DNA from: Terriglobia bacterium
GTDB taxonomy: Bacteria > Acidobacteriota > Terriglobia > JAIQFV01
Direction of reading: 5' to 3'
Length of the DNA: 64,000 bases
NCBI GenBank assembly: GCA_020072965.1
Contig: JAIQFY010000010.1
Coordinates: 108,243-172,242, forward strand
The position numbers and the translations under genes were made by a program. This document shows, piece by piece, positions 3,641-58,815 of this stretch (position 1 is the first letter of the stretch; every line of letters starts with the position of its first letter). The notes beneath the pieces are model-generated. The model made no database searches. It was not told where the DNA came from and worked only from the letters and a program-made list of their open reading frames with translations.

Positions 3641-3770
3641 TCCTTTCTGAAAGCTCTATTATACCCAATTTGCTGAAAACAGCGGGAGGACTTGCCTGTG
3701 GTCCGTGGCCGTACCGAACAAATCGGGAGCGCTTACGAAGCCTCCTGATATTTGCGTTACGACAGAAAAA

Positions 3771-5039: not shown

Positions 5040-5221
5040 ATTTGAATGTCTCCTTGGAAGCCCTTCCAAACTCGGAGGAAATACGAACACAGCCCAGTGA
5101 TCAGGCCGCATCGATCAACTCATAACACCTTTGTGGTAGGTGCAACGGTCAGTTCCCTGCGAGGTCCACGACCCCGCGGTTTATACACCCGGGAAGGAAG
5201 GTGAATCGGGAACGACCCGGA

Positions 5222-6412
5222 CTATTCGCTCAACACCAATTTGGCGATGGTCTGAAGTTGCATGTTTGACGTGCCCTCGTAAATCTGTCCAATCTTGGCG
5301 TCGCGATAGAATTTTTCTACCGGATAGTCTTTCGTGTAACCATATCCGCCAAGGAGCTGAACGGCCATCGAGGTGACCCTTTCAGCCATCATCGAGGAAA
5401 GGTATTTGGTCATCGCAGCTTCTTTCACGAAGGGGACGCCTGCGTCGCGCATCCGGGCCGAGTTATAAGTCAGCGTGCGGGAACACTCGATGTCGATCGC
5501 CATCTCGGCCAACTGGAACTGGACCGCCTGGAACTGAGAGATCTCCCTTCCGAACGCGTGTCGTTCCTTCGTGTACGCCAATGCCGCTTCATACGCCCCC
5601 TGGGCCAGCCCGGTCATTTGCGCCCCGATCCCAATCCGCCCTTCGTTCAAAGTCTCTATGGCAATCTTGTACCCGATGCCCACCTTGCCCAGCACGTTTT
5701 CCTTGGGGACGATACAATCGTCGAGCAGCAACTCGCATGTCGATGAGGCCCGGATGCCCAGCTTGTCCTCTTTCTTCCCCACCGTAAACCCCTGGAAACC
5801 CTTCTCAATGATAAAAGCAGTGATCCCCTTATAGCCGGCAGGGGGATTTGCATTGGCAAAGAGGATGAAGACATCCGCTTCCTTAGCGTTTGTAATCCAG
5901 AGCTTCCGGCCATTGAGGATGAAATGGTCGGGACGCTCCTCGGCCCTCGTGGTGAGGGCAAACGCATCGCTGCCCGAAGTGGCTTCACTCAGGGCATAAG
6001 CGCCCACACTCCCCTTGGCCAAACGGGGGAAGTATTTCTTCCGTTGTGTTTCATTGGCCCAACGTAGAAAAACGTTGTTGACCAGGGTGTTCTGAACATC
6101 GACGATGACTCCGATCGAGGGATCCACTCGAGATAGTTCCTCCACCGCCAGGACCGCCATGAAAAAAGACCCGCCTGCGCCGCCATACTCTTCCGGAATC
6201 TCAATTCCCATGATTCCCAGCTCGAAAAACTCCTTCAGGAGGTCCTTTTGAAACGCCCCTTCCTCGTCCATTTTCTTGACTAAAGGCTTCAGGCGCGCTT
6301 CCGCAAATTCTCTTACCGTGGAGCGGAACAGGGACTCATCCTCCGAGAATGACGTCACTGGCGGGCGAGCTGAAACATTTTCCTTCATGGCATTGGTTGA
6401 CATTGGCTTCAT
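5222..6412 (-). CDS. Acyl-CoA dehydrogenase (short/branched-chain type)
   Basis: 396 aa. Full-length similarity to ACAD family (YALSEATSGSDA..., C-terminal GGYGYTKDYPVEKFYRDAKIGQIYEGTSN). Adjacent to E1 and the aconitase-like gene, suggesting branched-chain catabolism. Confidence 0.85.
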   Translation of the reverse strand: MKPMSTNAMKENVSARPPVTSFSEDESLFRSTVREFAEARLKPLVKKMDEEGAFQKDLLKEFFELGIMGIEIPEEYGGAGGSFFMAVLAVEELSRVDPSIGVIVDVQNTLVNNVFLRWANETQRKKYFPRLAKGSVGAYALSEATSGSDAFALTTRAEERPDHFILNGRKLWITNAKEADVFILFANANPPAGYKGITAFIIEKGFQGFTVGKKEDKLGIRASSTCELLLDDCIVPKENVLGKVGIGYKIAIETLNEGRIGIGAQMTGLAQGAYEAALAYTKERHAFGREISQFQAVQFQLAEMAIDIECSRTLTYNSARMRDAGVPFVKEAAMTKYLSSMMAERVTSMAVQLLGGYGYTKDYPVEKFYRDAKIGQIYEGTSNMQLQTIAKLVLSE

Positions 6413-6620
6413 CCTCTAGCTTGAAAATCCTTCCACAGGCTCTCGAACAGTCTCTAAACAGGTGCGCAAATAAAGCTGAGAAAATCTAAATGAAAGCAAT
6501 CCGAATGGCAAGGTATTTCCGTGAGTGCTGCGCGCGCTTCATCGCCCTCGCGGTTTGTTAGGGGCGCTCAGGTGCAAAGCCGGTTTTTCACAGGGAGCCA
6601 TCTTCTCCTTTGACGGGGGC

Positions 6621-7466
6621 CTAATTCATCAGCGCCATCCCATTCTCGGCGGAATACAACCAGGAGAGCACCTGCTCCCGGTCGGGGGCTTCCGGGTCCA
6701 GCGCAAGATATCTTCTGAAGCCCGCCGACGCCTTACGGTAATGTTTGAGTTGAAGGTGCATGAATGAGAGATTTCGAATCTCGGTTGCGTCCTCCGGAGA
6801 AATGACAAGCATCAATTCAATGACCGCCAGCGACTTTTCTGCGACGCCGGTACTGGAAAAGATGTGTTTCAGATTATTGAGCATCCGAAAAAGAATCTGT
6901 TTCTTGCTGACCGGCTGAAGGAAGGCACGTTGAAACTCCGAGGATCCGCTGGACATTTCGGCCCAACGGGACCGGCAATCCTCCACGGTCATGAGCGTTC
7001 CTGCATGGTACGGATCGATGAGCATCTCGTCGAAGGGATCGTCGAGTTTCACGAGGAAATGGCCCGGCAAACCCACGCCAACAATATCCAAACCGATGCG
7101 CCGTGCTATCTCCATGTAAACTAAGGATAAAGTAATAGGGATTCCCGTCTTCCGGTCCAATACGTCATTCAGATAACTGTTCCTCGGATCATAGTAATTG
7201 TCCGCGTTTCCCTTGAAGCCCTGCTCTTTGAAGATAAACCGATTAAACGCCTCGATACTTTTTACAGTACAGGGGCTCTCAAGCGGAAGGCAGGAGCTGG
7301 CTCCAATAGCCATCTCGTCGAGGCGATCCAGATAGTCCTGAACCCGCAACGCAGGATATTCGCTCCGGGCGATCGTCAGGGCCCCCAGCGCTAAATTGAT
7401 CTGCCCTTCATCTCTGGAGACTATGGATCGAAACGCATCGATCACGCTTTGTTGTAAATCAGGCAT
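6621..7466 (-). CDS. Transglutaminase-like/SirB1(YchA)-family protein with C-terminal TPR-like region
   Basis: 281 aa. Resemblance to the SirB1 N-terminal/transglutaminase-like superfamily (GLPGHFLVKL...DPY) plus a helical repeat C-terminus. Family assignment by recollection only. Confidence 0.5.
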   Translation of the reverse strand: MPDLQQSVIDAFRSIVSRDEGQINLALGALTIARSEYPALRVQDYLDRLDEMAIGASSCLPLESPCTVKSIEAFNRFIFKEQGFKGNADNYYDPRNSYLNDVLDRKTGIPITLSLVYMEIARRIGLDIVGVGLPGHFLVKLDDPFDEMLIDPYHAGTLMTVEDCRSRWAEMSSGSSEFQRAFLQPVSKKQILFRMLNNLKHIFSSTGVAEKSLAVIELMLVISPEDATEIRNLSFMHLQLKHYRKASAGFRRYLALDPEAPDREQVLSWLYSAENGMALMN

Positions 7467-7688
7467 TGGGCATTATTGTAACAATTTTTCGGATTTCTTT
7501 CAGTCAACCCCGGAAATGAAGCCAGAAGCCTCATCTAAATCGGTTTGATCACCCTTCCCCCGGGGACACGACGGCTGGAAAAAACTGAAGACAGGGGATA
7601 TAATTGCGAATGAATCGCACATTAAGGGCAATCACGTGGAGGGCGTTTATGACGACTCCATGCGCAAGTTCAGGAGGGCGTAATCGAA

Positions 7689-8351
7689 ATGTCTCTGTTA
7701 GGTGAGAAGGAACAGGTAATCGTAAGCGAGCAATTTCAAAGGCTCGAGAATCCTGTGAGGATGATCCACTTTACCCAGGGCTTGATGTGTGACACCTGTC
7801 CCGAGACCCAGCGCCTCCTCGAAGACCTGGCATCCCTGTCTGACAAGGTCACCCTTGAGGTCCATAACTTTGCGATTGAACAAGAACTGGCGGCGCAGTT
7901 TCAGGTGGCTCGAGTCCCTGCAACTGTTATACAGACAGAGAAGGATTTTGGAATTCGGCTTTACGGGTTGCCTTCGGGTTACGAATTTGCTTCTCTATTG
8001 CACGCCATCCTGGCCGTGTCCCGTTCCGCCACCGAGTTGTCGGAGGAATCAAAGACCCTACTCCGATCCGTTACCACTCCTACTCACATCCAGGTGTTTG
8101 TGACCCCCACCTGACCGTATTGCCCCGCGGCCGTGAAGCTCGCGTACGAACTGGCAATTGAGAACGACTACATCACCTCGGACATGGTGGAAGTTTCAGA
8201 ATATCCGGATCTGATCCGCAAGTATCAGGTTCGAGGAGTTCCGAAAACCGTGGTGAACGATACCGTTGAGTTTGTTGGCGCTCTTCCGGAAGCAGAGTTT
8301 GTCGCGCAGGTTCTAAGAGGGGTAATCCCGGCCGGTTTGGAAAACAGGTAG
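7689..8351 (+). CDS. Two-domain thioredoxin-fold protein disulfide oxidoreductase (PDO/glutaredoxin-like), predicted selenoprotein with in-frame TGA (Sec) at 8112..8114 giving a UPYC active site
   Basis: Track ORFs 7689..8114 and 8133..8351 are in the same frame and separated only by TGA. Reading through gives ...VFVTPT-U-PYCPAAVKLAYELA..., i.e. a CPYC-type redox motif with TGA at the first Cys. The first domain has a CDTC motif. A SECIS-like hairpin follows. Confidence 0.6.
8115..8160 (+). promoter_or_regulatory. Candidate bacterial SECIS hairpin downstream of UGA 8112
   Basis: ccguaUUGCCcCGCGgccgugaagcuCGCGuacgaacuGGCAA: nested stems with a GU-containing apical loop about 15-25 nt after UGA. 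Not validated by folding. Confidence 0.3.
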
Positions 8352-8533
8352 GTGGGAGGGGACGAAAACTCGAAGGAGGAAGGCGTCCTCTCACAGCGCC
8401 TGCCATCTTCCCCTCTTCTTAACACCGCGTCTTTGATGTTGCCATGACCGCATGTACTGACCGAAGGGTGCAGGCTCACACCCGCGAATGGCCGGAAAAT
8501 CCTCAGGAACAGAGAGCTGGGCCCGATCCCACC

Positions 8534-10444
8534 CTATTCCCCCGCAGGCTGTTCAGCCCCCGGAAATTGAGAGCCGAAGGCGGTCACCAAGGGCAGACCG
8601 GGAAGTGTCTCCAATGGCATAACCTCCTGTCTAACCTCGTCGTACCCATCTGGGAGATCGCCATTGTCTGGACGAAAATACCGCCAATAGTTGGGACGCA
8701 CGGAAGCGATGAGCTCTTTTCGCGTCTTGGTTTTGAGCGGTTTTCCGATGTAGATCTTGCCCATCCGCTCCAGGATCTTTTCCGGGATGGCGCCCGCAAA
8801 CATGAACAAAGGGTATTTGAAATTCGGCCCATTCAGCTTCCGTAATTTGACAAGCCACATGATCAGCGAACCAAGGCGCCAGACAGTCGGGGCCCACCAG
8901 CTGTAATTGCCCGGACGCACGTTCATCTTCCAGCACTTCATCATGAGTTGCCATTGCAGAGGGGAGAGCTGGCGCGTTTCGGTCACGCCCTGCTTATCTG
9001 CCATGCGCGTATCATGCAAAGGGGTAAAAATCGAAGGGATGAGGAAGGCGAAGACGTGACGGCGCTCCATCTCATAAACCAGATCGAGCGTCGCTTTGAC
9101 ATCCTCGTCCGTTTCGCCGGGGTTGCCCACAATCAGAGTCATGGCGGGAAACCAGTTGTTCTCGTTCAAGACCCGAAGCCCTTCCAGGATAATGCTCGGC
9201 CAGTCTTCGATGGGAAAAGGGACCGCTTTGCTCGGCATGATCTGTTTCGCCATGCGGACTGATCCTGTTTCCAAGCCAATCAAAGGAATCAGTGCTTTCT
9301 TCTGGGGATGACTGCTGAGGTACGGGAAATGGATGGGGCTCTTGGGCAAAAGGAGATTAGAGAGTTCTCTAATCAAGGTCGGATCGACGACGGCCGGGGC
9401 AATAGTGCAATGACTCAGCAGATGATGCTCGACCCCGGGCGTGTTGACGACCTCGCTAAAGAGGCCGACCAATGCTTCCCGATTCGGGAAGTAGAAAGGG
9501 ACATTGGTGTGAACCTGTCCCCAGATGAACATATCCTCGGTTGCAAGCGAGATTTGCTTGTTTCCGTTCCGGACATTCGCCCGGACTGATTTCAAGATGT
9601 TCTCCTTGGGTAGGTCGATTTGCGGATTCAAATCGGGAACACAAAACTGACATCTTCGCCCGCAGCCGGTGGTCATTTCGACGACACCGAAGGTCGTGCG
9701 CTTTTCAGGCGCAAGAATGGTCGAACCGTCCTTCGGATGTGCAACATCGACCTGCCGGGGGAGGGATTCTCCTCTGACGGCCTGATCGAATAACCTCACC
9801 GTATCTGCTGATTCGCTCCGCCCTTCGATGACGCAGTCAATGCCAAGCTCCTCGTATGAATCCGTCTTAACGACTTGCCAGCCGCCTGATCCACCCACAA
9901 TAACCTTGAATTGGTCCCGATAGGGACTTGCTTTGATCTTTGCAAAAAGGGCTCGCGCATAGTGGGAGTTGATGGGCATTTTCGAAGATCCGAACATCGA
10001 GGTATAGACCCCTGCTGCAAACGTCACTCCCAGGGGATTGTGAGTGGAGACCGCGACGACGCGGGTGTTTGGCCCGATGAATTTTTCCAAGTCGTCAGGG
10101 TAGCAAGCGACAACCTCATCCGGTCCGTAGCTCCGAAGCAAAGAAGCTTCAACCAGTCGCACACCGGCTGGCATGGTACGGGCGGAACCATCCTCGTTGT
10201 GCTCCACCTCGCGCCAATGGGGGTACTTGTCGTTAAGGAACCGCTCCATCCAAATGGGTAAAGATGCCATCATCATCTGAATAAAATAGCCGGCATGGTC
10301 AATGGTCTCAGACAGAGGCGCCGATAAGACAATCAGCCTCCCCCCATCGATCGGGGCCGATGATTGAAGGACTTGCGCCACATTGTGATGGGACGTTTCG
10401 AGCGGTATTCCATTTCCATTGCTCTTCCGAGTTTTTAGACCCAT
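8534..10444 (-). CDS. B12-binding domain radical SAM protein (with long C-terminal extension)
   Basis: Radical SAM CxxxCxxC motif TTGCGRRCQFCV. N-terminal Rossmann-like B12-binding region. Start proposed at ATG 10444 with a strong GGGAGGAG RBS; the track ORF extends to 10498. Confidence 0.75.
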   Translation of the reverse strand: MGLKTRKSNGNGIPLETSHHNVAQVLQSSAPIDGGRLIVLSAPLSETIDHAGYFIQMMMASLPIWMERFLNDKYPHWREVEHNEDGSARTMPAGVRLVEASLLRSYGPDEVVACYPDDLEKFIGPNTRVVAVSTHNPLGVTFAAGVYTSMFGSSKMPINSHYARALFAKIKASPYRDQFKVIVGGSGGWQVVKTDSYEELGIDCVIEGRSESADTVRLFDQAVRGESLPRQVDVAHPKDGSTILAPEKRTTFGVVEMTTGCGRRCQFCVPDLNPQIDLPKENILKSVRANVRNGNKQISLATEDMFIWGQVHTNVPFYFPNREALVGLFSEVVNTPGVEHHLLSHCTIAPAVVDPTLIRELSNLLLPKSPIHFPYLSSHPQKKALIPLIGLETGSVRMAKQIMPSKAVPFPIEDWPSIILEGLRVLNENNWFPAMTLIVGNPGETDEDVKATLDLVYEMERRHVFAFLIPSIFTPLHDTRMADKQGVTETRQLSPLQWQLMMKCWKMNVRPGNYSWWAPTVWRLGSLIMWLVKLRKLNGPNFKYPLFMFAGAIPEKILERMGKIYIGKPLKTKTRKELIASVRPNYWRYFRPDNGDLPDGYDEVRQEVMPLETLPGLPLVTAFGSQFPGAEQPAGE

Positions 10445-33505: not shown

Positions 33506-33913
33506 TCACTGCTCCTTCAACACCACCCACGTCGCGCCCCACCCTCCTGCCTCCGGCCTCGCATCTCTGAAAGACGCCACCAGCGGATGCTTTGAGAGCA
33601 CCGATCGGACTATCTCACGCTGAACCCCAATCCCCCGGCCGTGGACGATTCGCATCCTGCGAAATCCTTTCTCGTGAGCCTCCCGGAGGTATTCTTCAAG
33701 GACGACCTTTATTTCTTTTGGTGAAAAAGTATGGAGATCGATGGAATCTTCGATAGGAATGGTGATGGGCTCTCGGGAGGAGAAGGCCTCCCCCTCATGA
33801 TTTTGGAGTTCCACCTTCTGGGCTCCCGTCTCTGGCTTCTGACTTCCGGCTTCTGACTTCTGACTTCCCTTCTCAGGGAAGAAAGACCCCACAGGTTTGG
33901 ATTTTTTGTTCAA
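33506..33913 (-). CDS. Smr domain protein with low-complexity N-terminal linker
   Basis: C-terminal Smr domain (IDLHTFSPKE...RIVHGRGIG). The N-terminal GSQKSEAGSQKPETGAQK tract is encoded by an (AGAAGTC)n heptamer array. Confidence 0.65.
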   Translation of the reverse strand: MNKKSKPVGSFFPEKGSQKSEAGSQKPETGAQKVELQNHEGEAFSSREPITIPIEDSIDLHTFSPKEIKVVLEEYLREAHEKGFRRMRIVHGRGIGVQREIVRSVLSKHPLVASFRDARPEAGGWGATWVVLKEQ

Positions 33914-35964: not shown

Positions 35965-38900
35965 CTAACGAGACGATTTCCCCACTGCCAGTGGCGAGCC
36001 GTCATCCCCAAAGAAGCTGAGCGCAGCGACGGAGGCCTCGGTGCCGATATTCAAGAAAATGAATTGGGTTTGATAGCCTCCCCCATCGGCGATTTGAGGA
36101 AAGATGATCGGGAAGGGGACAGGACGAGCCAGATCAGCGACTGGAAAGGTCGTCAGCAAAAAATCCCCACGCGCGGTGTTCAGCGAACGCATAGTCAGTG
36201 CCACGAAGCTGGCAGGAGCACTCATATCCAAGACCCCCTTGAAATCATCGGGAAGATCTGAAATCAACTCTCCCACAAACATTGCGGCGTGACCATTGGC
36301 ATTGAGATTCAAGAAGGCGAGACCCTTGCCGGCCGGGGTCCTGCCATCAAGGTGAAAAGCACTCAGGGCGATCGGGTCGGCGCCACTCTGGGGAAATGCA
36401 ATGGCTAAACCTGTGTCGTGGCCGTTCGATTTGTCAATGTAAATCCGCGCATGATTAGTCGGAAGGGCCGATGGAATTCCGGATTCCGTTACCAGGATTC
36501 CCCCCTGCGTGAGACCGAAAATCCCCGCACCGACCGGGACCTGGCTTCCTTGATTAGCTGTCACCCGGATCCAGCCCGAATTCACCGTGGGCGGTGAGCC
36601 GTCAGTTTGAAGCACAAAGATCCCCCCTGGTTTTATGGTATACGCAAAGGAGGAGCCCGAATTCCCAATGACCGGCCGGACCACACGCGGCGCCCCATCG
36701 TCTGCAAAAAGCTGAATGTTTCCGGTTTCGTCCAACCCCGAAGTGTTCAGCAAAACGACTGTCGACTGGTATCCGCCTCCATCAACTACATGTGCAAAGA
36801 AGAGCTCAGTTTCAGACGCAGTTTTCGTCAAATCGGCGATGGGAGTGGTGGTGATGAGCGTTTCACCCCGCTGATTCGTGGTTAACCGGAGGGCGACGAT
36901 GGAGAGCGGCTGGTCACTCCCGATTTCAAGGGAGCCAAATTTCGTGACTGTTGGAAAATCCGCGGCTAACTGAAAATCGGGGGCGACGTCATGAAGTTGG
37001 TCAATGAATTTGGAGAGGTGTGTACCAGCGGCGAGCACGCTGTGGCCCGAGGCCAACAGCTGACCGGCGGCATCCCGCAAGGTGAATGATACATTGGCCG
37101 CGTTCCCGCCGGGGTTTACGAGGGCGAATCCGGTGTCGATGCTAATGCTCGCTGCATCAGGATGATCAGATTTGGACGGTACACTGGTACGGTAATCGAT
37201 GAAGATCCGAGCCGCTGTTGTCGGCGGGGACACTGGAACACCCGCCTCAGTCACTACATGGCCGTTCTGTTCAAGACTAAACACGGCGGTCCCAACGAGT
37301 AATCCACTACCTGAACCCACGTCTACCGTGACATAGCCGGCTTGAACAAAGCCTGCCCCTTCCCTGGTGAAAACGGATTGCGCTCCGCCATCTATAAGAT
37401 TCATAGCGATCTGAGCATTAGCGGCCGGGCAGGAATTCAGGAGGACCGCATCGGGCGCCACAACATCGGGCTTTCCGTCTCCGTTGATGTCGCTAACTCC
37501 AATGAATGCGGAAGAGATGCCAAGGCTATAATCCACGGGGTTCTGTAAAGTGCCATCCCCGTTCCCCAAGAGGATCGAGACACTGGAGTTCAAATTAGCC
37601 ACTGCCAGATCGAGCTTGCCATCCCCATTGAAGTCACCGATCGCGAGGGAGCCGGCACTCGAAATGTCACCAAAACTAACCGGAGCCTGGAACGTCCCAT
37701 CCCCATTCCCCCTAAGGAGGACCACGCTACCGCTGAGGTTCATAAATGAGCGTCCCACGGCCAGATCGAGAATCCCATCTCCATTGAAGTCCCCTACGGC
37801 AATCTGCCCGGGCGAGATTCCCACTTCAATGGATCCAGCGTCCTGGAAGGTCCCATCCCCGTTTCCCCTGAGAAGCGCCACAAATCCAAGGCCTCCGACA
37901 CTGTTGCCGGAATCAATGACCGCCAGATCAGGAATCCCGTCGCCGTTGAAGTCTCCTGTCACGGCTGACGCCCCGGGATTTGTACCCGCAAGGTTATGGA
38001 TTGGCGGCTGAAACGTGCCATCCCCGTTCCCCAGTAAAATGGTGACATCCCCGCGCTGCGAGAAAAAGTTGTGCACCACCTGGCTGGGGTTCACTACCGC
38101 CAAATCGAGCATACCGTCGTTATTGAAATCTGAAACGACAATGTAGAAAGGATTTGATCCCGCCGCAATTTTCGAGGAAGCCTGAAAAGTGCCATCCCCG
38201 TTCCCCAACAGAATTGAAATGTCTTTGGAGGTGAAATTACTCACCACCAGATCCGTCTTTCCATCCCGGTTGAAATCGCCCGCGGTAACGAACACCGGAC
38301 TCGATCCGACAGGATAAGTCGATGGTGTTCGAAAAGAGCCGTCGCCATTCCCCAACAAGATTGCCAGCGTATCCGAACCCCGATTAGGCACTGACAGATC
38401 GGGTATTCCATCACCGTTCAGATCTGCCAGCCAGAATCGTCCCGGGCCTGATCCCGTGCTGTAGTTCACCGCACTTTGAAAAGTCCCGTCGCCCTTCCCA
38501 ACCAAAATGGCGAGGGTGTCGTTGGAGATGTTTGCTGCCGCCAAGTCGCGTTTCCCATGCCCCGTAAGATCCCCCACGGCAACAAACACGGAATTAAACG
38601 GCAGACTGATGGCCATCGGAGGCCGGAAGGAGCCATCGCCGTTTCCTAACATGACTGAAGAATCCGCCACCAGATCGAGATTGCCGTCGCCGTTGAAGTC
38701 GCCCGGGATGACGAATCCGAACGCGGTTCCAGGGCTGTCTATCGGGGCTTGAAAGGTACCATCTCCTTTGCCGAGCAAAATCGAGACCCTCCCATTCGGA
38801 CCCCGGACGGCGAGATCCGTTGTGCCGTCACGATTGAAATCGCCAGCAGCAAAAGGGATGGCTGCAGCGGCACCAACGCCAGGCCCATTCCGGAAGGTGC

Positions 38901-39627
38901 CATCGCCATTCCCCAACAAGATGAATACTGATTCCAGGCTCACTCCGGCGATCACCAAGTCTGCGATTCCATCGCCATTAAAATCTGCGGCGACCAGCGA
39001 GGAGGGAAACGTCGCCAGGGTGGTATCTGAAGTTGTCTGAAAGGTGCCATCACCGTTTCCCAGAAATACAGAGACACTCTTTGAGAATTGGTTTGCCACA
39101 ACAAAATCGAGTTTACCGTCCCGGTTGAAGTCGCCGGTCACGACGGAGTTCGGTCCGATGCCAGCCTGGTAGTCCGCGGCCGCCCCGAAGGAGCCATCAC
39201 CTTTACCCAGAAGGATCGACACATCGTTGTCCCGCTGATTCACCACCACCAAGTCGGGCTTGTTGTCCCCATTAAAATCTCCAATGGCCACGGACACCGG
39301 ATCGGATCCGACGCCATAATTCACAGCGGCCTGAAAGGTCCCATCCCCTTTCCCGAGCAGGATGGAAACATTGTTGGAACCGAAATTGACAGCGACGAGG
39401 TCTCCCTTGCCATCTCCGTTGAAGTCACCTATGGCCACGAATACAGGGGTAGCGCCGGCAATGAAATCGGGTTTCACTGAGAAACTTGGAGTCGTGCAGG
39501 CAATGGCGGCAGCAAGGAGGTTCCGTCCAACAATACCAGAGAGACTCACCATCATGAGCAGGACATACCAAAGCGTCCAGGAATGAAGACCAAGGTCCTT
39601 TCCGGTCTTATTGCTCACTTCTTTCAC
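35965..39627 (-). CDS. Large secreted FG-GAP/VCBS-repeat (integrin-alpha-like beta-propeller) protein with duplicated C-terminal domain
   Basis: 1220 aa. Signal peptide. About 17 repeats of GDFNGDGKxDLvv.N..sn.VSILLGNGDGTFQ. C-terminal ~450 aa contains two copies of an unidentified ~190-aa domain, each ending ...TTPIADL / ...TTFPVADL. Confidence 0.8.
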   Translation of the reverse strand: MKEVSNKTGKDLGLHSWTLWYVLLMMVSLSGIVGRNLLAAAIACTTPSFSVKPDFIAGATPVFVAIGDFNGDGKGDLVAVNFGSNNVSILLGKGDGTFQAAVNYGVGSDPVSVAIGDFNGDNKPDLVVVNQRDNDVSILLGKGDGSFGAAADYQAGIGPNSVVTGDFNRDGKLDFVVANQFSKSVSVFLGNGDGTFQTTSDTTLATFPSSLVAADFNGDGIADLVIAGVSLESVFILLGNGDGTFRNGPGVGAAAAIPFAAGDFNRDGTTDLAVRGPNGRVSILLGKGDGTFQAPIDSPGTAFGFVIPGDFNGDGNLDLVADSSVMLGNGDGSFRPPMAISLPFNSVFVAVGDLTGHGKRDLAAANISNDTLAILVGKGDGTFQSAVNYSTGSGPGRFWLADLNGDGIPDLSVPNRGSDTLAILLGNGDGSFRTPSTYPVGSSPVFVTAGDFNRDGKTDLVVSNFTSKDISILLGNGDGTFQASSKIAAGSNPFYIVVSDFNNDGMLDLAVVNPSQVVHNFFSQRGDVTILLGNGDGTFQPPIHNLAGTNPGASAVTGDFNGDGIPDLAVIDSGNSVGGLGFVALLRGNGDGTFQDAGSIEVGISPGQIAVGDFNGDGILDLAVGRSFMNLSGSVVLLRGNGDGTFQAPVSFGDISSAGSLAIGDFNGDGKLDLAVANLNSSVSILLGNGDGTLQNPVDYSLGISSAFIGVSDINGDGKPDVVAPDAVLLNSCPAANAQIAMNLIDGGAQSVFTREGAGFVQAGYVTVDVGSGSGLLVGTAVFSLEQNGHVVTEAGVPVSPPTTAARIFIDYRTSVPSKSDHPDAASISIDTGFALVNPGGNAANVSFTLRDAAGQLLASGHSVLAAGTHLSKFIDQLHDVAPDFQLAADFPTVTKFGSLEIGSDQPLSIVALRLTTNQRGETLITTTPIADLTKTASETELFFAHVVDGGGYQSTVVLLNTSGLDETGNIQLFADDGAPRVVRPVIGNSGSSFAYTIKPGGIFVLQTDGSPPTVNSGWIRVTANQGSQVPVGAGIFGLTQGGILVTESGIPSALPTNHARIYIDKSNGHDTGLAIAFPQSGADPIALSAFHLDGRTPAGKGLAFLNLNANGHAAMFVGELISDLPDDFKGVLDMSAPASFVALTMRSLNTARGDFLLTTFPVADLARPVPFPIIFPQIADGGGYQTQFIFLNIGTEASVAALSFFGDDGSPLAVGKSSR

Positions 39628-39716
39628 CTCCGATTACTCAGAACTTCACTCGTCAAACAAACCAATTCTAGCACTTTGGTCTCCGACTATTCGGATCTCG
39701 ATCGCAAGGTGATCCA

Positions 39717-42380
39717 CTACCTTGCGTTTTTCCCCACTGCCATGCTCGAGCCGTCGTCTCCAAAGAAGTTGAGCGTTGTGCTGGCCCCGCCTGTCGCGCT
39801 CAGCAGAATAAACTGAGTCGTGAATCCTCCACCGGCGGCGATTTGAGGGAAGATCATAGGGCTTGGGGCAGGCTGATTCACGTCCGCGATTGGAAAAGTG
39901 GTCAACAGAAAATCTCCGCCCGTGGCACTGAGTGAGCGAAGAGTGAGCGCCGCGAAGGGAGTCGCCGGGAGGAATATCGTTGGTAGTGAAGTGACATCCA
40001 AAACTCCGGTGAAGCCCTCGGGCAGGGATGCAATGAAAAACTGGTTGGCAAACTTAGCCGCATGTCCGTTGGGGTCGAGATCCAGGCTCCCCGTCGCGAC
40101 CGGCGTGATCCCATCCGCTTCAAATGCCGTGATCGAAGCATGAAGAGGCACACTCCCGGCAATGGCGATGGCCACCCCCGTGTTGTGCCGGTTCGTCAGA
40201 TCAACGTAGAGGCGTGCATGAGTGGTTAGATTTGCCGAGGGGATACCGGACTCGGTGACGAGATTACCAGCTCTCCGGAGACTGAATATCCCAGCGCCGA
40301 CCGGGGTCGTGGTCCCGGAATCTGGTGTAAGCTGGACCGAGCCTGCATTCACGAATTGCGGCGATCCGTCGGTCTGAAAGATGAAAACTCCCTCCGGGGG
40401 GATCAAGTATGGGAACGAGGATCCCGACGAACCGTTGATCGCATTCACCGATAGAGGAGAACCGGAATCGCTGAAGATTTTCAGATTCCCCGTCTCCACC
40501 CCCTCGGAGGTGTTCAGGAGCACCAGGGTCGTCCGGTAACCCCCTCCATCCACCAGTTGAGGAAAGGAAAGAGGATCTTGCGACGGGGCCTTGGTCAAAT
40601 CCGCGATGGGTGTGGTTGTCAGTAGCGTTTCCGATTGCTGGTTGGTAGTCAACCGCAACGCCACGATGGACATCGGTTCTTCGCTCGTGATCTCCAAAGA
40701 CCCAAATCCAACCTCAGTCGGAAAGTTCGGCGGCACAACCAAGCCGGGAGCCAGCTCAGTAATGAAGTTTGCCAGGTGAGCTTTTGAGGGGAGAGTTATA
40801 GCGCCTGAAGCCAGGACTTTCCCTTGTGAATCCCGTAACTTCAAGGCGATCTGAGCCGTATTTGTCCCAAGGTTAACCACGGCGAGCCCCGTGTTGACAC
40901 TGATTGCGCCTGAGCTCTCCTGATTGGACTTCGAAGGGACTACATTTCGATAATCAATAAAAATCCGGGCATCCAAAGTCGGGGGGGAAGCGGGGACGCC
41001 CGCCTCACTGACCACCACACCGTTCTGAACAAGGCTGAACACGGCAACTCCGTATGGCGCACTTCCCGAATTCGTATCAACGGTTGCGTAGCCTGCCTCA
41101 ACATTGCCGATTCTACCCAGCGTCGAAAGGGTGCCCGATCCTCCTGCCGTAACGGCGAGGGTCACGGAGCTCTTCGGGGTCAGGCAGGTGCTCAGATCAA
41201 TGTAAAGGTTGTTGAGAGAAGAATTGAACGCCGCCAAGTCGGGCTGTCCATCCCCGTTGAAGTCACCACTGATGAGGGAGCGCCCACCCACAGCGGCACT
41301 TAGGGTTGGGCCGATCTTAAAAGTCCCGTCCCCGTTCCCCCATAGAACTGAAACGTCCTTGGTGAATTGGTTGATCCCCGCCAAATCCGTTTTGCCATCT
41401 CCATCAAAGTCAGCCGTTACAAACGGACTCAGGCCGGCGGTGGCAAGATCTATCACAGGGGCCTGAAATGTTCCATCCCCATTGCTGAGTAAAACGGAAA
41501 TGACGCTGGCCTTCGACGCCGCTAGGTCGGTCTTCCCATCCCCGTTGAAATCGCCCGTTGCAACCAGTCCATCAAAACTGGATCCACCCAAGAAGCTCGA
41601 ACCTGGTTGGAAAGTCCCATCACCTTTCCCAAGCAAAATCGAGATCTCGCTGGTGGTCGCCACGGCCAAGTCTGTCTTCCCGTCACCATTAAAATCACCG
41701 GCAGCCAACGATTTGGGGGAAGACACAATCCCAATGTCCTGCGATGGCTGAAAAGTCCCGTCGCCCTTCCCCAGAATGATCGACACCCCTGTGAAACTGA
41801 CTACAGCCAAATCGAGTTTGTTGTCCTTGTTAAAATCGGCCACTGCTACATAGATCAAGATCGACCCCGGCACAAACACCAAAGGAGATTGGAAGGCGCC
41901 ATCACCTTTCCCAAGCCAAATCGAAACGGTGCTGGGACCTTGGAAATGTATGCTGCCGCCATTCTCAATCAGGACCAGATCCACCTTTCCATCCCCGTTA
42001 AAATCCCCCACGGCAGCGGAACTCACACTTCCTCCGCGAGTGTCCGAGTTGATGGGCAAGCGGAATGTTCCATCGCCGTTGCCGAGAAGGACAACAACAG
42101 AGAATGCGAGTGAGTTGATGTTGCCCCTATGGCTGAATCCAATGACATCGGAAATTCCATCCCCATTAAGGTCTCCAGCCACCACGAAAGAATCTCCTAA
42201 GTTGAGGTTAACGGTGGGAGCACCTAGAAAACCTGGGGTTGTGCACCCACTGGAGGCGTGCAATACCGATATTGGACCGTTGCATAATGCAAGAAGATAG
42301 ATGCTGAGTACCAACATGAAAGGAAAAAATTCGAAGGAACGGCGGCTTTTGTTCAGTATAGTCATTGCTGTGCACCTCAA
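39717..42380 (-). CDS. Large secreted FG-GAP/VCBS-repeat protein, tandem paralog of 35965..39627
   Basis: 887 aa. Same repeat type (GDFNGDGKTDLA...SILLGKGDGTFQ). Same C-terminal duplicated domain and C-terminal tail (NFFGDDGSSMAVGKNAR versus SFFGDDGSPLAVGKSSR). Confidence 0.8.
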   Translation of the reverse strand: MRCTAMTILNKSRRSFEFFPFMLVLSIYLLALCNGPISVLHASSGCTTPGFLGAPTVNLNLGDSFVVAGDLNGDGISDVIGFSHRGNINSLAFSVVVLLGNGDGTFRLPINSDTRGGSVSSAAVGDFNGDGKVDLVLIENGGSIHFQGPSTVSIWLGKGDGAFQSPLVFVPGSILIYVAVADFNKDNKLDLAVVSFTGVSIILGKGDGTFQPSQDIGIVSSPKSLAAGDFNGDGKTDLAVATTSEISILLGKGDGTFQPGSSFLGGSSFDGLVATGDFNGDGKTDLAASKASVISVLLSNGDGTFQAPVIDLATAGLSPFVTADFDGDGKTDLAGINQFTKDVSVLWGNGDGTFKIGPTLSAAVGGRSLISGDFNGDGQPDLAAFNSSLNNLYIDLSTCLTPKSSVTLAVTAGGSGTLSTLGRIGNVEAGYATVDTNSGSAPYGVAVFSLVQNGVVVSEAGVPASPPTLDARIFIDYRNVVPSKSNQESSGAISVNTGLAVVNLGTNTAQIALKLRDSQGKVLASGAITLPSKAHLANFITELAPGLVVPPNFPTEVGFGSLEITSEEPMSIVALRLTTNQQSETLLTTTPIADLTKAPSQDPLSFPQLVDGGGYRTTLVLLNTSEGVETGNLKIFSDSGSPLSVNAINGSSGSSFPYLIPPEGVFIFQTDGSPQFVNAGSVQLTPDSGTTTPVGAGIFSLRRAGNLVTESGIPSANLTTHARLYVDLTNRHNTGVAIAIAGSVPLHASITAFEADGITPVATGSLDLDPNGHAAKFANQFFIASLPEGFTGVLDVTSLPTIFLPATPFAALTLRSLSATGGDFLLTTFPIADVNQPAPSPMIFPQIAAGGGFTTQFILLSATGGASTTLNFFGDDGSSMAVGKNAR

Positions 42381-46876: not shown

Positions 46877-47060
46877 GGTTGGATCCCGGCCTGATGAACT
46901 GCCTGATGAGCGGGATGGTAAGGGAAGGCCCTCCCTGCGTCAACTCAAAACTCGAGGCCTTGTTGCTTGCACTGCGGGGCTATGCTATAAACGAATTCAG
47001 GTGTCGGGTGTCCGGTGCCAGGTGCCAGAAAGTTGGAAACACGAGTGAGAGGCCGGGAAC

Positions 47061-47158
47061 AGAAGTCGGAAGTCAGAGGTCGGAACGTAGAGTCGAAAAG
47101 GCAGATATTCCAGGGATTGTACTTCGGACTTTGAACTTTGAACCTTGAACTTTGAACT
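47061..47158. repeat. Heptamer tandem arrays (AGAAGTC)n and (TTGAACT)n; inverted copy of the 50187..50373 element
   Basis: agaagtcggaagtcagaggtcgg ... ttgaactttgaaccttgaactttgaact seen directly. It is the reverse complement of the arrays at 50187-50373. Confidence 0.6.
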
Positions 47159-50186: not shown

Positions 50187-50373
50187 AGTTCAAAGTTCAA
50201 GGTTCAAAGTTCAAAGGCCAAAGTCCAATGAAAATCTAGTTCAAGGTTCAAAGTTCAAAGTTTAAGGTACCGTTTCGACCCTGACTTCCGACTTCTGACT
50301 TCCGACTTCTGACTTCTGACTTCTGGCTTCTGACTTCTGGCTTCTGACTTCTGGCCTCCAGCCTCCGGCTTGT
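50187..50373. repeat. Two adjacent heptamer tandem arrays: (AGTTCAA)~11 at 50187-50265 and (GACTTCT)~13 at 50283-50373
   Basis: agttcaaagttcaaggttcaaagttcaaaggccaaagtccaa... and gacttccgacttctgacttccgacttctgacttctgacttctggcttctgacttctgg... Period 7 verified by eye. Confidence 0.7.
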
Positions 50374-55445: not shown

Positions 55446-55516
55446 GGCTCTTTGCGGCAACTCGTTCAGCCGGAGTTTGCTACACATGAATCTTGTCATT
55501 CAATCGGGGAGGATCC

Positions 55517-56383
55517 ATGAAAAAGTCTCGCCTGCTTCTGACCGTCGTAATCTTCCTGGGCCTGTGGTTACTGCCGCCCAATCATCTCCCGGCGCAAAAG
55601 GAAGAGGCCCAAAAAGTGGGCAAGGAAATCACGAAACGGGCCCGCCGCATCGCGGGAAAGGACCGACTGGACGGCGTTCTCTCCGGACGAACCCGCGTCC
55701 TGGACCTGACTTATCCCCTGAATGCACAGACCCCTTATTGGCCGGCCCCGAACTACGAGCCCTTAAAGCATGAATTTTTTGCCACCCTCGAAAAGGATGG
55801 TGTCCTTTCAGGGAGGTATTGTGCGCCGGAGCACCTGGGGACCCACGTGGATGCCCCGAACCACTTTGAACGAGGGGGAATTCCCCTCGACAAAATCGCG
55901 CTGGATGATCTGTTCGGTTATGCCGTGGTGATCAATGTCCGGGGAAAAGCGGCTTCCAATCCCGATTATCGAGTCTCTCCTGCCGACCTTCAGGAATGGG
56001 AGCGGAAGAATCACGAGATTCCGGATGGCGCTATCGTGCTCGCGTACACCGGCTGGGGAGAGCGGGTCGAGAATCTCGAGCAATATCAGAACAAGGATTC
56101 TCAGGGAGTCATGCACTTTCCGGGTTGGTCAACCGAGGCGGTGGATTTTCTCCTTCGCGCCCGCAACATCAATGCCATTGGCATGGACACCCTTTCGATG
56201 GACTACGGACCCTCGAAGGATTTCGCCGTCCACCATCTGCTGATGAGCGCCGGAAAGTATGGTCTCGAAAACGTCGCGCATCTCGATCAAATGCCTCCGC
56301 GCGGCGGTTTCTTGATCGTTTCTCCCATCAAGATTGAAGGGGGCAGCGGCGGCCAGGCCCGGATCTATGCGCTGATTGAATGA
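55517..56383 (+). CDS. Cyclase family protein (kynurenine formamidase-like), secreted
   Basis: Signal peptide. HxGTHxDAPxH motif (HLGTHVDAPNHF) of the putative cyclase family. Confidence 0.75.
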   Translation: MKKSRLLLTVVIFLGLWLLPPNHLPAQKEEAQKVGKEITKRARRIAGKDRLDGVLSGRTRVLDLTYPLNAQTPYWPAPNYEPLKHEFFATLEKDGVLSGRYCAPEHLGTHVDAPNHFERGGIPLDKIALDDLFGYAVVINVRGKAASNPDYRVSPADLQEWERKNHEIPDGAIVLAYTGWGERVENLEQYQNKDSQGVMHFPGWSTEAVDFLLRARNINAIGMDTLSMDYGPSKDFAVHHLLMSAGKYGLENVAHLDQMPPRGGFLIVSPIKIEGGSGGQARIYALIE

Positions 56384-56384
56384 C

Positions 56385-56582
56385 GTCGTAGTAACGACTT
56401 CAGTCGTTACTCCTCCCCAATCCGTGCACAGAGAATGCTTACACTTCAAGCAACGACTGAAGTCGTCACTACCCCCGCCACTCCAACACATCGTAGTAAC
56501 GACTTCAGTCGTTGCTCCTGTCAGATCCGGAGATAGAAATCTCCCAGGTTTTACTTGACGACTGAAGTCGTCACTACACTAG
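56385..56582. repeat. REP/BIME array: four palindromic REP units (GTAGTAACGACTTCAGTCGTTAC) in alternating orientation
   Basis: Units at about 56385-56416, 56447-56474, 56489-56520 and 56554-56582, each an imperfect hairpin AACGACT-N-AGTCGTT. Confidence 0.7.
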
Positions 56583-57178
56583 TCATCCCAACCCTTTCCA
56601 AAGTCCCGGGGTGGGTAAGTAATCCAATTCTCACGCAACCACTGCCGACCATAAGATTCCTTGTAGCTATCCACACTTGACCAGGGCCATTCAAAGGGAT
56701 CCGAAACATAGCCATGTTTTACAGGATTATAATGAATGTAATTCAGAGCCCGGTAAAAATGCCTCGTATCCCGAATCATCCGGTCCTCAAACTTGTACCA
56801 GACCCGTCGTTGTCCATCCAAGCCATCCTCTAGATTCCATTCCCTTGACGTCGCACCATGAAGTTGCTTCAGAACGGCTGAAACAAGGTCGAGCGAAGAA
56901 ACGTCAACGAGAAGGTGATAATGGTTTGGGAGGATTACCCACCCTGAAACATCGGCTTCGACCGAATCCATAGACTCCAACAAGCGCGCTTCAAATTCGG
57001 TCAGGCGCTCTGGAGTGTCCATAACAGGAGCATGCTCGAAATTCGCTGCTGTGATCAAGTATTCACCTGCCATGCGAAACGGGTGTGGAGGGGCATGAAG
57101 CGGGTACCCGCGCTCGCGGCGCTGACGCAAGATCACTTCCCTCTCAAGAATTGTCATCCGGCGATATAGATAAGACAT
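56579..57178 (-). mobile_element. REP-associated tyrosine transposase (RAYT; IS200/IS605 TnpA-like, Y1 HuH)
   Basis: 199 aa, HuH motif ILPNHYHLLV and catalytic Tyr region RALNYIHYNPVKHG. Flanked on both sides by REP palindromes. Confidence 0.8.
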
Positions 57179-57258
57179 AATTGTTTAGGCCCGATGTCCT
57201 CTCCATCAGTCAATGCCAGGGTGTCTGCGGCAACGTGGCGAGGTCTTCGCCTTGTTTA

Positions 57259-57311
57259 TGTAGTAACGACTTCAGTCGTTAAGGCGTAACGACTAAAGTC
57301 GTTACTACGTC
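57259..57311. repeat. REP pair forming a long inverted repeat upstream of the RAYT gene
   Basis: GTAGTAACGACTTCAGTCGTTAaggcgTAACGACTAAAGTCGTTACTAC. Confidence 0.7.
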
Positions 57312-58815
57312 ACACCCTCCTCCGATACATCACCTGAATTCCTTCCCGCCAGTTTTCGTTGAGGCCCACTTTGATCACCTCGATCTCCGGAGGGAGATAT
57401 TTGAGTATTCCTTCAGTGGTGGAGTGGAAGCGAAAGGCCGGAGAGACGACGTATAAGACCGGCGGGCGGGGTCCGACTTTGACCCCGGAGAAATATCCCT
57501 GCCGCTCGAAGTCGCCACGCTCGTGATGCCACTTGACCCGTGTCCAATAGTCCAGCGCCTGAAGGGGTAAATTGATATCCTCTGCAACCTTCAATTCGAT
57601 CACCGCCAATCGACGATCGCGCGTAAGGGTCAGGATATCGATGACTCCTCGATCCAGTCCGGAAAACGCCGGGACCTGCGGATACACGAAGCCGGGATCA
57701 AGGTTGAAGTGGATCTGTCGAATGTCAGATAACACCAGCGACTCCAGCCAGCGTTCTGATTGAAGGCGGTAGTAGGGGTGCCTGGGAGCAGGTGATCGCG
57801 GACATCGGATCGCCTGCAATTCACTGAGGAGGGAGGAGAGTTCTTCGTCCAAACCCTTTTTATATGCCCTCTCCATCGAGCCCACCCCGTAATTGACCCT
57901 CGACAGTTTTTCTTCCCCCAGCCGGGCAAATTCCAGGCCATGAAAACGGATAGAGAAGAGCCTCGAAGCCGGCCGATGAACGATCTCAACCAAGTCCAAT
58001 CTGGAGCGGATCGGCGCGGGCAAAGCATCGAAAGGAATCTGCTCATAACGCAGCGGGACCTGGTCGACGCGCGACAACTTCGTTTCCACGTTGCCGTAGT
58101 CCGCAAGGTCAACCGGAGTCACCATACGGGGGTCTTCTCCGTATTCCAGGAGATCCAACCGAAGCCCTGCGCTTTGTAGGTAGGCCGCCCGAGTCGCCAT
58201 TGTGTAGCTTCTTCCTTCCGGAACGAGCAGTTTGAGCCCCACGACAGGCCGCCTGTCCGGATCTGTGCGCAACTGGTTCATCCAAATCAAGGCAAAGCTC
58301 AAACAGGCATCCACCGTAGACTGGTCCTCTGCGGGATTGACTCCGAAAACCGCCCAGCGACAGTTCCTCTCCACTCCGATTCCACGGCAAAAATGCTCGG
58401 AAAAGGACCGGCTGAGATCTTTCGCTGAAATCATTCTCTCGATCCGGATTTCGGGACAATGGGATCGAAGTATCTGGAGGATTTGACCCGGAAATCTCCG
58501 CCTAGAGGCCTTTCTTTCAACCAGTAACGCTGAGGAGACCAAGGCGTCGAATTCCAGATTGAAGGGAGGAGCGCCGCCATATGCTACCTGCAGAACCAGC
58601 CGGTCGTTTTCGCACTCTTCCAGGCTTATGACTCGCCGCGTGATGGATTGATCGGAGTTCCAAAGGGTGAAGAGGAGTTTTCCGAACTGAATTTCGAAAC
58701 AAAAATGAGAATCCTCAAGCTTAAGCAGACCGGCACGAGGATCACAAATAATCGTACTGGGATGCGACAGCAGGAACAACTCAAGCGTGTCCTTGAGTGC
58801 AATTAAACTATTCAT
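57310..58815 (-). CDS. Hypothetical protein with C-terminal PD-(D/E)xK-like nuclease motif
   Basis: 501 aa, no family recognised. C-terminal GVIDILTLTRDRRLAVIELKVAED fits the D...ExK restriction-endonuclease-fold pattern. Confidence 0.5.
   Translation of the reverse strand: MNSLIALKDTLELFLLSHPSTIICDPRAGLLKLEDSHFCFEIQFGKLLFTLWNSDQSITRRVISLEECENDRLVLQVAYGGAPPFNLEFDALVSSALLVERKASRRRFPGQILQILRSHCPEIRIERMISAKDLSRSFSEHFCRGIGVERNCRWAVFGVNPAEDQSTVDACLSFALIWMNQLRTDPDRRPVVGLKLLVPEGRSYTMATRAAYLQSAGLRLDLLEYGEDPRMVTPVDLADYGNVETKLSRVDQVPLRYEQIPFDALPAPIRSRLDLVEIVHRPASRLFSIRFHGLEFARLGEEKLSRVNYGVGSMERAYKKGLDEELSSLLSELQAIRCPRSPAPRHPYYRLQSERWLESLVLSDIRQIHFNLDPGFVYPQVPAFSGLDRGVIDILTLTRDRRLAVIELKVAEDINLPLQALDYWTRVKWHHERGDFERQGYFSGVKVGPRPPVLYVVSPAFRFHSTTEGILKYLPPEIEVIKVGLNENWREGIQVMYRRRV

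Follow-up and report, generated by a model that had tools for sequence, protein, structure and literature searches.

What are the short palindromic repeats that surround a small transposase-like gene in an acidobacterium, and how did they come to be there? The question is raised by positions 56385-57311 of a 64,000-nucleotide stretch (the window) of contig JAIQFY010000010.1, whose host is an acidobacterium of the class Terriglobia, as the named proteins nearest to its EF-G come from Terriglobia, Acidobacteriia and Bryobacterales; ENA contig ERZ27247940:k141_466079 is identical to the window. The locus consists of one minus-strand open reading frame (ORF; 56579-57178, 199 aa) and six copies of the 23-nt palindromic unit GTAGTAACGACTTCAGTCGTTAC. 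Repetitive extragenic palindromes (REPs) and the REP-associated tyrosine transposases (RAYTs) are among the commonest bacterial repeats. To our knowledge, nearly all that is known of REP/RAYT systems comes from Proteobacteria, where they are called ancient, vertically inherited and domesticated. RAYT genes flanked by REPs tagged with GTAG have been termed REPtrons (PMC3733652). The analysis presented here indicates that the locus is very probably a REPtron, composed of a RAYT gene that is single-copy in 64 kb and six cognate GTAG-tagged REP hairpins, arranged as three dimers resembling REPINs (inverted REP dimers), which was most likely acquired once and has thereafter been inherited vertically. 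The interpretation as a REP/RAYT system, proposed in a first-pass annotation made from the sequence alone, is thereby supported, and the type of system is already known. Less ordinary are the presence of filled and empty orthologous sites, the local expansion of the array with no dispersal seen in 64 kb and a hairpin common to several phyla.

The Transposase Is of the RAYT Type

The ORF was found where the first-pass annotation had placed it, and its product contains both of the motifs claimed, PNHYHLL and NYIHYNPVKHG. The protein matched the NCBIfam model NF047646 (REP_Tyr_transpos) with 90.7 bits against a cut-off of 80. Its score for Pfam PF01797 (Y1_Tnp, IS200) was 18.5 bits, under the gathering score of 23, and the NCBIfam IS200 model did not match it. 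When the window protein was aligned with 31 homologues (61-87% identical to it), NF047646 was matched by all 32 proteins and the IS200 model by two of them, weakly. The earlier label "IS200-like" is therefore appropriate at the level of the superfamily and not at that of the IS200 family models. A phmmer search against the Protein Data Bank (PDB) returned 4ER8 (E. coli TnpA_REP with a REP hairpin; E 3.6e-7) as the sole sequence match among solved structures. In this alignment, LPNHYHLL falls on LPEHMHCI and NYIHYNPVKHGYV on DYIYINPVKHGWV; by counting along the chain, H86/H88 fall on E. coli H59/H61 and Y147 on Y115, the nucleophile. The similarity to HUH and Tyr motifs, which the first-pass annotation had proposed to check by alignment, was thus found, the partner being E. 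coli TnpA_REP. Residues H86, H88, N146, Y147, H149, N151, P152, K154 and H155 were invariant in the window protein and the 31 homologues, as was the NPxKH motif in all 32 sequences. An AlphaFold2 model built on the homologue alignment (mean pLDDT 76.5) had 4ER8 as its top Foldseek match (E 1.1e-7, TM 0.52/0.62), followed by the TnpA proteins of ISDra2 and IS608. As judged from its sequence, the product of the 199-aa ORF is a RAYT (TnpA_REP, HUH/Y1 superfamily) whose predicted catalytic residues are intact.

The first 36 residues were conserved across the homologues, and on this evidence the 199-aa frame begins at its true start codon; the 147-aa proteins in public gene calls (P0006) are truncated. 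Two homologues carry additional segments. An in-frame insertion resembling REP-derived sequence, SNDRSHDLRRYRGSDRSDDLSRDY, was observed at about positions 138-161 of the homologue alignment in P0022, and the RAYT of a cyanobacterial locus (L087, 2749-3402) has an extra in-frame REP-like segment containing EGLSPH...KGFSPY.

Arrangement of the REP Units

The first-pass annotation had described a four-unit REP cluster of alternating orientation on one side of the gene and an inverted REP pair on the other, and all six units were located by sequence search in the window at no more than three mismatches from GTAGTAACGACTTCAGTCGTTAC; a seventh raw match was a palindromic self-overlap of REP1 and was not counted. 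REP1 (56388..56410, plus strand), the outermost unit, is identical to GTAGTAACGACTTCAGTCGTTAC and starts 4 nt past the stop codon of a convergent cyclase gene. REP2 (56450..56472, minus strand, GTAGTGACGACTTCAGTCGTTGC) forms with it a head-to-head dimer with GTAG facing outward and a 39-nt spacer. REP3 (56493..56515, plus strand, GTAGTAACGACTTCAGTCGTTGC) opens the second dimer, of which the other unit is REP4 (56555..56577, minus strand, GTAGTGACGACTTCAGTCGTCAA), located on the rayT coding strand 1 nt past the rayT stop codon. This type of abutment on the rayT stop was also present in two homologous loci described below, L124 and L130. The rayT gene itself (56579..57178, minus strand) encodes the 199-aa protein, with the HUH residues at H86-Y87-H88 and the predicted catalytic tyrosine at Tyr147, and is preceded by a leader of 81 nt (57179..57259, minus strand) that extends from REP5 to the start codon. 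REP5 (57260..57282, plus strand, GTAGTAACGACTTCAGTCGTTAA) is the inner unit of the dimer upstream of rayT, and REP6 (57286..57308, minus strand, GTAGTAACGACTTTAGTCGTTAC) is the outermost unit on that side, 1 nt past the stop codon of a 501-aa gene.

Four units of alternating orientation are thus located 3' of rayT and two, an inverted pair with a 3-nt gap, 5' of it, giving the three GTAG-outward dimers REP1/2, REP3/4 and REP5/6. REP1 and REP6 form 28-nt terminal inverted repeats, 93% complementary, which bound the whole 923-bp unit. The two left-hand dimers constitute a 105-nt tandem unit in which the REP parts are nearly identical and the spacers have diverged. Together with rayT, the REPs occupy almost every base between the two convergent host genes.

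The REP Hairpin and Its Covariation

The six flanking units share the GTAG-tagged hairpin core GTAGTRACGACTTYAGTCGT. A search for the 23-nt unit gave 0 matches in each of 100 dinucleotide shuffles of the window, and the 14-nt stem-loop core, allowing two mismatches, was found only at the six REP sites in the 64 kb. When the window was searched generically for any perfect hairpin preceded by GTAG, five of the six units were recovered (REP2 was missed owing to a G-T wobble in its stem) together with one additional, unrelated match at 9610; shuffled sequences averaged 0.4 matches, and no other GTAG-hairpin family was found in the window. As single-stranded DNA, the single unit represented by REP1 is predicted to form an 8-bp stem with a 4-nt loop (TTCA) at -6.7 kcal/mol (z -4.4). 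The hairpin with a GTAG tail described by the first-pass annotation was therefore recovered, with a correction: in the predicted fold of the full 23-mer, the G of GTAG is not free but paired with the 3' C. The dimers are predicted to fold as long hairpins of -19.5 to -21.9 kcal/mol (z -5.9 to -7.6), the values being -19.5 kcal/mol (z -5.9) for REP1/2 and -19.8 kcal/mol (z -7.6) for REP5/6.

As the RAYTs diverge, the stem alters by paired substitutions, e.g., ACGAATTTATTCGT, ACGGCTTCAGCCGT, AGGGCTTCAGCCCT, ACCACTTCAGTGGT and GCGACTTCAGTCGC, with retention of GTAGT and the loop. Among 102 distinct 21-mer REP variants, 90.6% of the cells pair and six of the seven stem pairs were changed on both sides. 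Cells with a double change numbered 80 against 20.2 in shuffles, a value that none of 500 shuffles reached, and all slid registers collapsed. The variants were gathered by similarity to the window unit (no more than four mismatches, GTAG required), which inflates the percentage paired but works against the detection of double changes. GTAG is invariant among them by selection; GTAGT, the upper stem GA(C)T/A(G)TC and the loop bases T13 and A15 are near-invariant, the last two being at least 90% conserved. The covariation shows that the predicted structure of the REP hairpin, beyond its sequence, has been kept by compensatory change.

REPs Accompany RAYT Genes in Homologous Loci

A scan of metagenome contigs yielded 80 loci carrying RAYT relatives with 46-71% identity. 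Of the 68 loci that had at least 120 nt of flank on each side, 50 carried REPs of the window family both upstream and downstream of the gene, at no more than 250 nt from it. The nearest upstream unit was mostly in plus orientation and the nearest downstream unit mostly in minus; the commonest layout places one unit upstream at a distance of ~30-40 nt and its inverted counterpart downstream at ~11 nt, with GTAG facing outward. A like pattern was observed at five RAYT loci of reference genomes and at two loci obtained from exact-protein look-ups. The REP detector gave ~7 matches per 253 kb of shuffled DNA, corresponding to ~12 false matches per 424 kb.

A further locus, L130 (ENA ERZ909605, a groundwater contig, 2174-9014), encodes a RAYT 70% identical to that of the window and carries eight REP units that fall within the long ORFs on either side of the gene. 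These ORFs, which encode a ResIII helicase (1049 aa) and an N6_N4 methyltransferase (964 aa), read through the REPs in frame. The REP-encoded peptides include RSNDLSRYY, VVTTSVVKR and RSDDFSRQQTTEVATTSD, and one REP provides the TAG stop codon of the helicase. Eight REPs in one restriction-modification-like gene pair are striking; coding genes tagged with REPs are already known, and both REPs read through inside coding genes and tandemly reiterated REP clusters are described in PMC3733652.

Probable Gain and Vertical Inheritance of the Locus

A close relative, L124 (EF-G 95.6% identical; ENA ERZ27247930 k141_269518), has a RAYT with 87% amino acid identity at the corresponding site, where it is flanked by the 501-aa gene and by YqeY. 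The proteins encoded around it are 84-96% identical to those of the window, and the cyclase gene has been lost. Between the two genomes, rayT showed a dS of 0.69 and a dN/dS of 0.09, the corresponding values for five neighbour genes being 0.52-0.97 and 0.04-0.16. Since the gene occupies the same site, with a dS in the range of its neighbours and a dN/dS of 0.09, rayT has been inherited vertically and under purifying selection since the split from L124. The arrays have been less stable. L124 has three direct REP units upstream of RAYT vs the inverted pair of the window, and contigs with an identical RAYT from different samples have three, at least five (the contig ends inside the array) and six downstream units; several independent assemblies terminate inside the REP array. 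As shown by this comparison, the flanking arrays have been remodelled, and amplified in units of ~105-110 nt, during vertical inheritance.

More distant relatives provide empty sites. L226, L224/L225 and L222, with EF-G 88, 85 and 83% identical and 501-aa orthologues 68, 56 and 52% identical, respectively, retain the gene order EF-G / 501-aa / (cyclase) / YqeY. Neither a RAYT nor a REP of the window family was found in the 13-22 kb available for each, and their intergenic sites contain no RAYT or REP remnant. A single gain in the ancestor of the window genome and L124 is favoured because it is more parsimonious than three clean losses, and the most likely history, as read from these alignments, is that the whole REPtron was gained once. 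The designation "mobile" given by the first-pass annotation agrees with this presence and absence among relatives; from then on, the unit has been inherited vertically. The gain was probably by horizontal transfer. GC content at third codon positions (GC3) is 52% in the RAYT gene and 62-67% in its neighbours, and RAYTs of Anaerolineae genomes share 59-67% identity with that of the window. EF-G evolves ~3x slower than RAYT (window vs L124), yet EF-G is already 67-69% identical within Terriglobia. The low GC3 and the occurrence of the closest RAYT relatives in other phyla suggest a foreign origin.

Other changes were observed at the same junction. The cyclase-family gene is kept in the distant L222 (14652-15518, 77% amino acid identity) and absent from the close L124 (10600-10740) and from L224, a gene-sized indel beside the REP array; where it is absent, YqeY directly adjoins the REP cluster or the 501-aa gene (L124, L224). 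At the REPtron-equivalent position of L226 (13440-13658), there is a different long palindrome with arms of ~50 nt (GGATCGCTTTGGAGGAATCTC…GGGCATGCGTGCCC…), inside which the contig ends.

The Hairpin in Other Genomes

The exact 20-mer GTAGTRACGACTTCAGTCGT was found in at least 120 stretches of reference genomes, against ~2 expected by chance according to our own arithmetic for 596 Gb and both strands. With group labels taken from the record titles, the matches listed comprise Chloroflexota (at least 70 loci, 55 genomes), Cyanobacteria (at least 40 loci, nine genomes, including the named Laspinema, Oscillatoria and Phormidium, which are not metagenome-assembled genomes (MAGs)), Brocadiaceae (at least three loci, two genomes), Acidobacteriota (at least two loci, two genomes), Zixibacteria and Acetothermia (at least one locus in one genome each) and unclassified records (at least three loci, two genomes). 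Another Terriglobia MAG contains an intergenic REP dimer. Many of the single-phylum matches are dimers, which argues against a chance origin. A RAYT homologue is encoded in just five of the 120 stretches among the matches listed, and the hairpin is therefore considered a dispersed repeat in those genomes. The first-pass annotation had asked whether the REP was unique to the locus; within the 64 kb it is confined there, whereas in many other genomes it is dispersed away from RAYT.

The same hairpin occurs in other settings. Eight predicted viral contigs of IMG/VR (L134-L141) bear the exact REP and have no RAYT on the stretch fetched; seven contain a single copy, and L141 has an additional variant copy. 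They may represent fragments derived from a host, the flanks of prophages or phage DNA into which a REP has inserted. In Oscillatoriales (Oscillatoria sp. HE19RPO, Laspinema, Phormidium; L018, L022, L053, L108, L114, L115, L120 and others), REPs are arrayed in tandem, head to tail, at a period of 31-36 nt, with as many as 11 such copies in one array and GTTC before each unit; L018 has 13 REP units within ~450 nt. This organization is unlike the inverted dimers of the window.

Alternative Explanations of the Locus

The features described above could also be those of an autonomous insertion sequence (IS) of the IS200/IS605 type, with the REPs as its left and right ends. The 28-nt inverted repeats formed by REP1 and REP6 around the 923-bp unit, the minimal bracket of one REP on each side at most homologous loci, the presence and absence of the unit among relatives, a GC3 unlike that of the host and the fold common to IS608 and ISDra2 TnpA are all consistent with such an element. 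This explanation is nevertheless improbable. The Y1_Tnp score falls under its threshold and the IS200 model fails on the window protein; both ends carry one and the same GTAG hairpin instead of distinct left and right ends; and no second RAYT copy was found within the 64 kb. The shared site in L124, with a dS (~0.7) like that of the neighbours, implies that the unit has not moved since the split, and the hairpin occurs without a RAYT gene in 115 of the 120 genome loci among the matches listed. Nor was a close homologue found on plasmids or phages, where the search returned one 27% match on a Chloroflexota plasmid and no phage match.

It is still less probable that the hairpins are chiefly host regulatory elements which terminate transcription, insulate or stabilise mRNA where convergent genes meet, with the transposase as an inactive passenger. 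All the REP clusters do abut a stop codon (the cyclase gene at +4 nt, rayT and the 501-aa gene at +1 nt, and YqeY in L124), the dimers are predicted to fold stably and such roles of REPs are described in PMC3733652. The REPs have no T-tract, however, and a scan for intrinsic terminators and promoters at the REPs found nothing above chance and no terminator-like site at any of them; one terminator-like hairpin was located at 57237-57251 on the plus strand, but the two genes transcribed across that region both run on the other strand. In the relatives that have no RAYT, this convergent junction is also free of REPs, and REP and RAYT co-occur in ~50 independent loci. The dN/dS of 0.09 and the invariant catalytic residues indicate that the RAYT is no decaying passenger.

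A degenerate clustered regularly interspaced short palindromic repeat (CRISPR) array, or another chance palindromic repeat, for which the short repeats left of the gene with their roughly regular spacing (59, 43 and 62 nt) could be mistaken, as the first-pass annotation had warned, was rejected on the alternating strand and 23-nt palindromic form of the units, on "spacers" that are themselves partly repeated, on the lack of any cas-family Pfam domain within 10 kb on either side and of any Rfam match in the window, and on the company that the repeats keep with RAYT in dozens of loci.

Relation to Known Systems

As a REPtron, the locus may be compared with the E. coli system (TnpA_REP/YafM, REP-BIME, RAYT group 2, 4ER8), with which it shares alignable HUH and Tyr motifs, the best structural match, inverted GTAG-tagged hairpins that flank the gene and a chromosomal state that is single-copy in the 64 kb. 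It differs in host phylum, in a protein identity of only ~19-25%, in ~30 additional conserved residues at the N-terminus (YRR...ER..GYPLHAPPHP) and an extended C-terminus, and in a REP with a short perfect stem of 7-8 bp and a 4-nt loop, without the bulge required by E. coli TnpA_REP (PMC8266576). The earlier term "BIME-like" (bacterial interspersed mosaic element) is thus apt as an analogy to E. coli and not as a statement of membership. Likeness was also observed to the group 3 REPtrons, or REPIN-RAYT systems, of Pseudomonas fluorescens SBW25, Stenotrophomonas maltophilia and Marinomonas MWYL1, whose REPs are perfect palindromes of ~23 nt that carry GTAG at the 5' end and form hairpins with a short, T-rich loop. 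According to PMC5581495 and PMC8266576, inverted dimers (REPINs), conserved loop bases, vertical inheritance and housekeeping-like selection are also common to both. Group 3 genomes, however, contain hundreds of REPINs, whereas none was found beyond the RAYT flanks in the 64 kb, and the window locus differs further in the evidence for gain of the unit and for a REP common to several phyla. The GTAG REP families covered by PMC3733652 have stems of 6-9 bp, TY-type loops and a preference for head-to-head dimers.

RAYT group 4 is reported, in the accessible part of PMC5581495, to be common in Cyanobacteria, Chlorobia and Caldilineae, to comprise 17 classes from 61 species and to have ~14 copies of the flanking 16-mer per replicon. 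The window family resembles group 4 in host range and in the low frequency of its flanking repeat, the resemblance being one of these two properties and not of reference sequences. Neither the REP sequence of the window nor Acidobacteriota hosts for group 4 were found in that part of the paper. It also states that RAYTs are single-copy, chromosomal and vertical over short time scales, and that horizontal transfer is possibly dominant over long ones. In the survey by Di Nocera et al. (2013; PMC3733652), the tyrosine transposases of Acidobacteria (TIRYTs, in TIRtrons) are flanked by long, unrelated terminal inverted repeats (TIRs) and not by GTAG REPs; in contrast, the window contains a true GTAG REPtron in a Terriglobia genome. 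The REP stem sequence of the window had no match in the supplement text of the same survey, as far as it was available (24 GTAG REP families), and no occurrence of the REP string was found in the literature searched. The TnpA proteins of IS200/IS605 elements (IS608, ISDra2) share with the window protein the HUH/Y1 fold, the recognition of hairpins in single-stranded DNA and a guide tetranucleotide 5' of the hairpin. The locus is unlike those elements in its RAYT-specific profile, its identical hairpin ends, the absence of TnpB and its single-copy (in 64 kb), syntenic state.

Proposed Mechanism and Evolutionary Reading

The proposed mechanism is modelled on the E. coli, Stenotrophomonas and Marinomonas systems (PMC8266576 and work cited there). 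The RAYT would bind a REP folded as a hairpin on single-stranded DNA, reading the 5' GTAG, the upper stem and the T-rich loop. GTAG would serve both in recognition and as a guide to the cleavage site, a CT or CA lying on either the 5' or the 3' side of the hairpin. On cleavage at a nearby dinucleotide, Tyr147 would form a 5'-phosphotyrosine link, assisted by an HUH-bound metal, and the strand would then be rejoined, so that REPs and REP dimers may be copied or moved. Entry of the whole unit into its site could have been RAYT-mediated or could have occurred by recombination of flanking DNA. By analogy, the conserved pattern of GTAGT, upper stem, T13 and A15 resembles the loop-dependent recognition of group 3 more closely than the bulge-dependent mode of E. 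coli.

Several observations weigh against the reading of the locus as a REPtron that was gained once and moves its own REPs. The dinucleotide CT follows REP1, REP2 and REP3 (GTTACTCC, GTTGCTTG, GTTGCTCC) but not REP4 or REP5. At distances above 400 nt from homologous RAYT genes, REPs are sparse, amounting to 30 per 424 kb, and there is no REP beyond the locus in the 64-kb window or in 20 kb of the relative L124. The preference for gain over loss rests on parsimony across four lineages that were ranked by their identity and not placed in a tree, and the phylum labels of the MAG matches may include binning errors.

A wider proposal is that this RAYT lineage and the near-invariant hairpin GTAGTRACGACTTYAGTCGT make up a single REPtron family, transferred from phylum to phylum as a self-contained unit that brings its own "seed" REPs. 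It is put forward tentatively, the probability being judged somewhat below even.

Neighbouring Genes and Other Repeats of the Window

The convergent neighbour on the REP1 side is a cyclase-family gene (Pfam Cyclase; 55493-56383, plus strand). On the REP6 side, upstream of rayT, lies the 501-aa gene (57310-58815, minus strand), whose product had no Pfam or NCBIfam match and only marginal PADLOC matches to PDC-S11 (E ~0.005); its C-terminus (…DRRLAVIELKVAEDINLPLQALDYW…) looks nuclease-like by eye. Because it is conserved in relatives that have no RAYT, the 501-aa protein is regarded as lying outside the REPtron. A scan of the 81-nt rayT leader found no sigma-70-like promoter, and for this reason transcription of rayT by read-through from the upstream 501-aa gene is possible.

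Elsewhere in the window, intergenic heptamer tandem repeats (CTGACTT, TCTGACT, AGTTCAA/TTGAACT) were observed at 33831-33867, 47060-47158 and 50187-50353, and the arrays at 47116-47158 and 50187-50229 form inverted arms, 93% complementary, that enclose ~3 kb. Two adjacent minus-strand ORFs of 1220 and 887 aa (35965-42380) contain repeats with a period of ~147 nt (49 aa); their many direct-repeat families suggest FG-GAP/VCBS-like repeat proteins.

Significance

The locus provides a clean example of a REPtron from Acidobacteriota, where only TIR-flanked relatives had been reported. For annotation, it explains a palindromic cluster that is open to miscalling as CRISPR and whose transposase is shortened to 147 aa in public gene calls, and it serves as a warning that assemblies are prone to break in REP arrays. 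The filled and empty orthologous sites date the gain of the whole unit, and the hairpin is base-identical to that in genomes of several other phyla. If the reading of horizontal transfer is true, the locus would be a tractable case for studying the establishment of a REPtron in a genome new to it and the strength of the constraint that a RAYT places on its hairpin. If the proposal of a family moving between phyla is true, that family would span Chloroflexota, Cyanobacteria, Acidobacteriota, Planctomycetota and others, and the window would represent an early stage after arrival, with insertion between convergent genes, local amplification of the array and little or no dispersal yet. Such a family would contradict the view of REPIN-RAYT systems as strictly vertical, and its hairpin would be the most widely distributed single REP sequence known.

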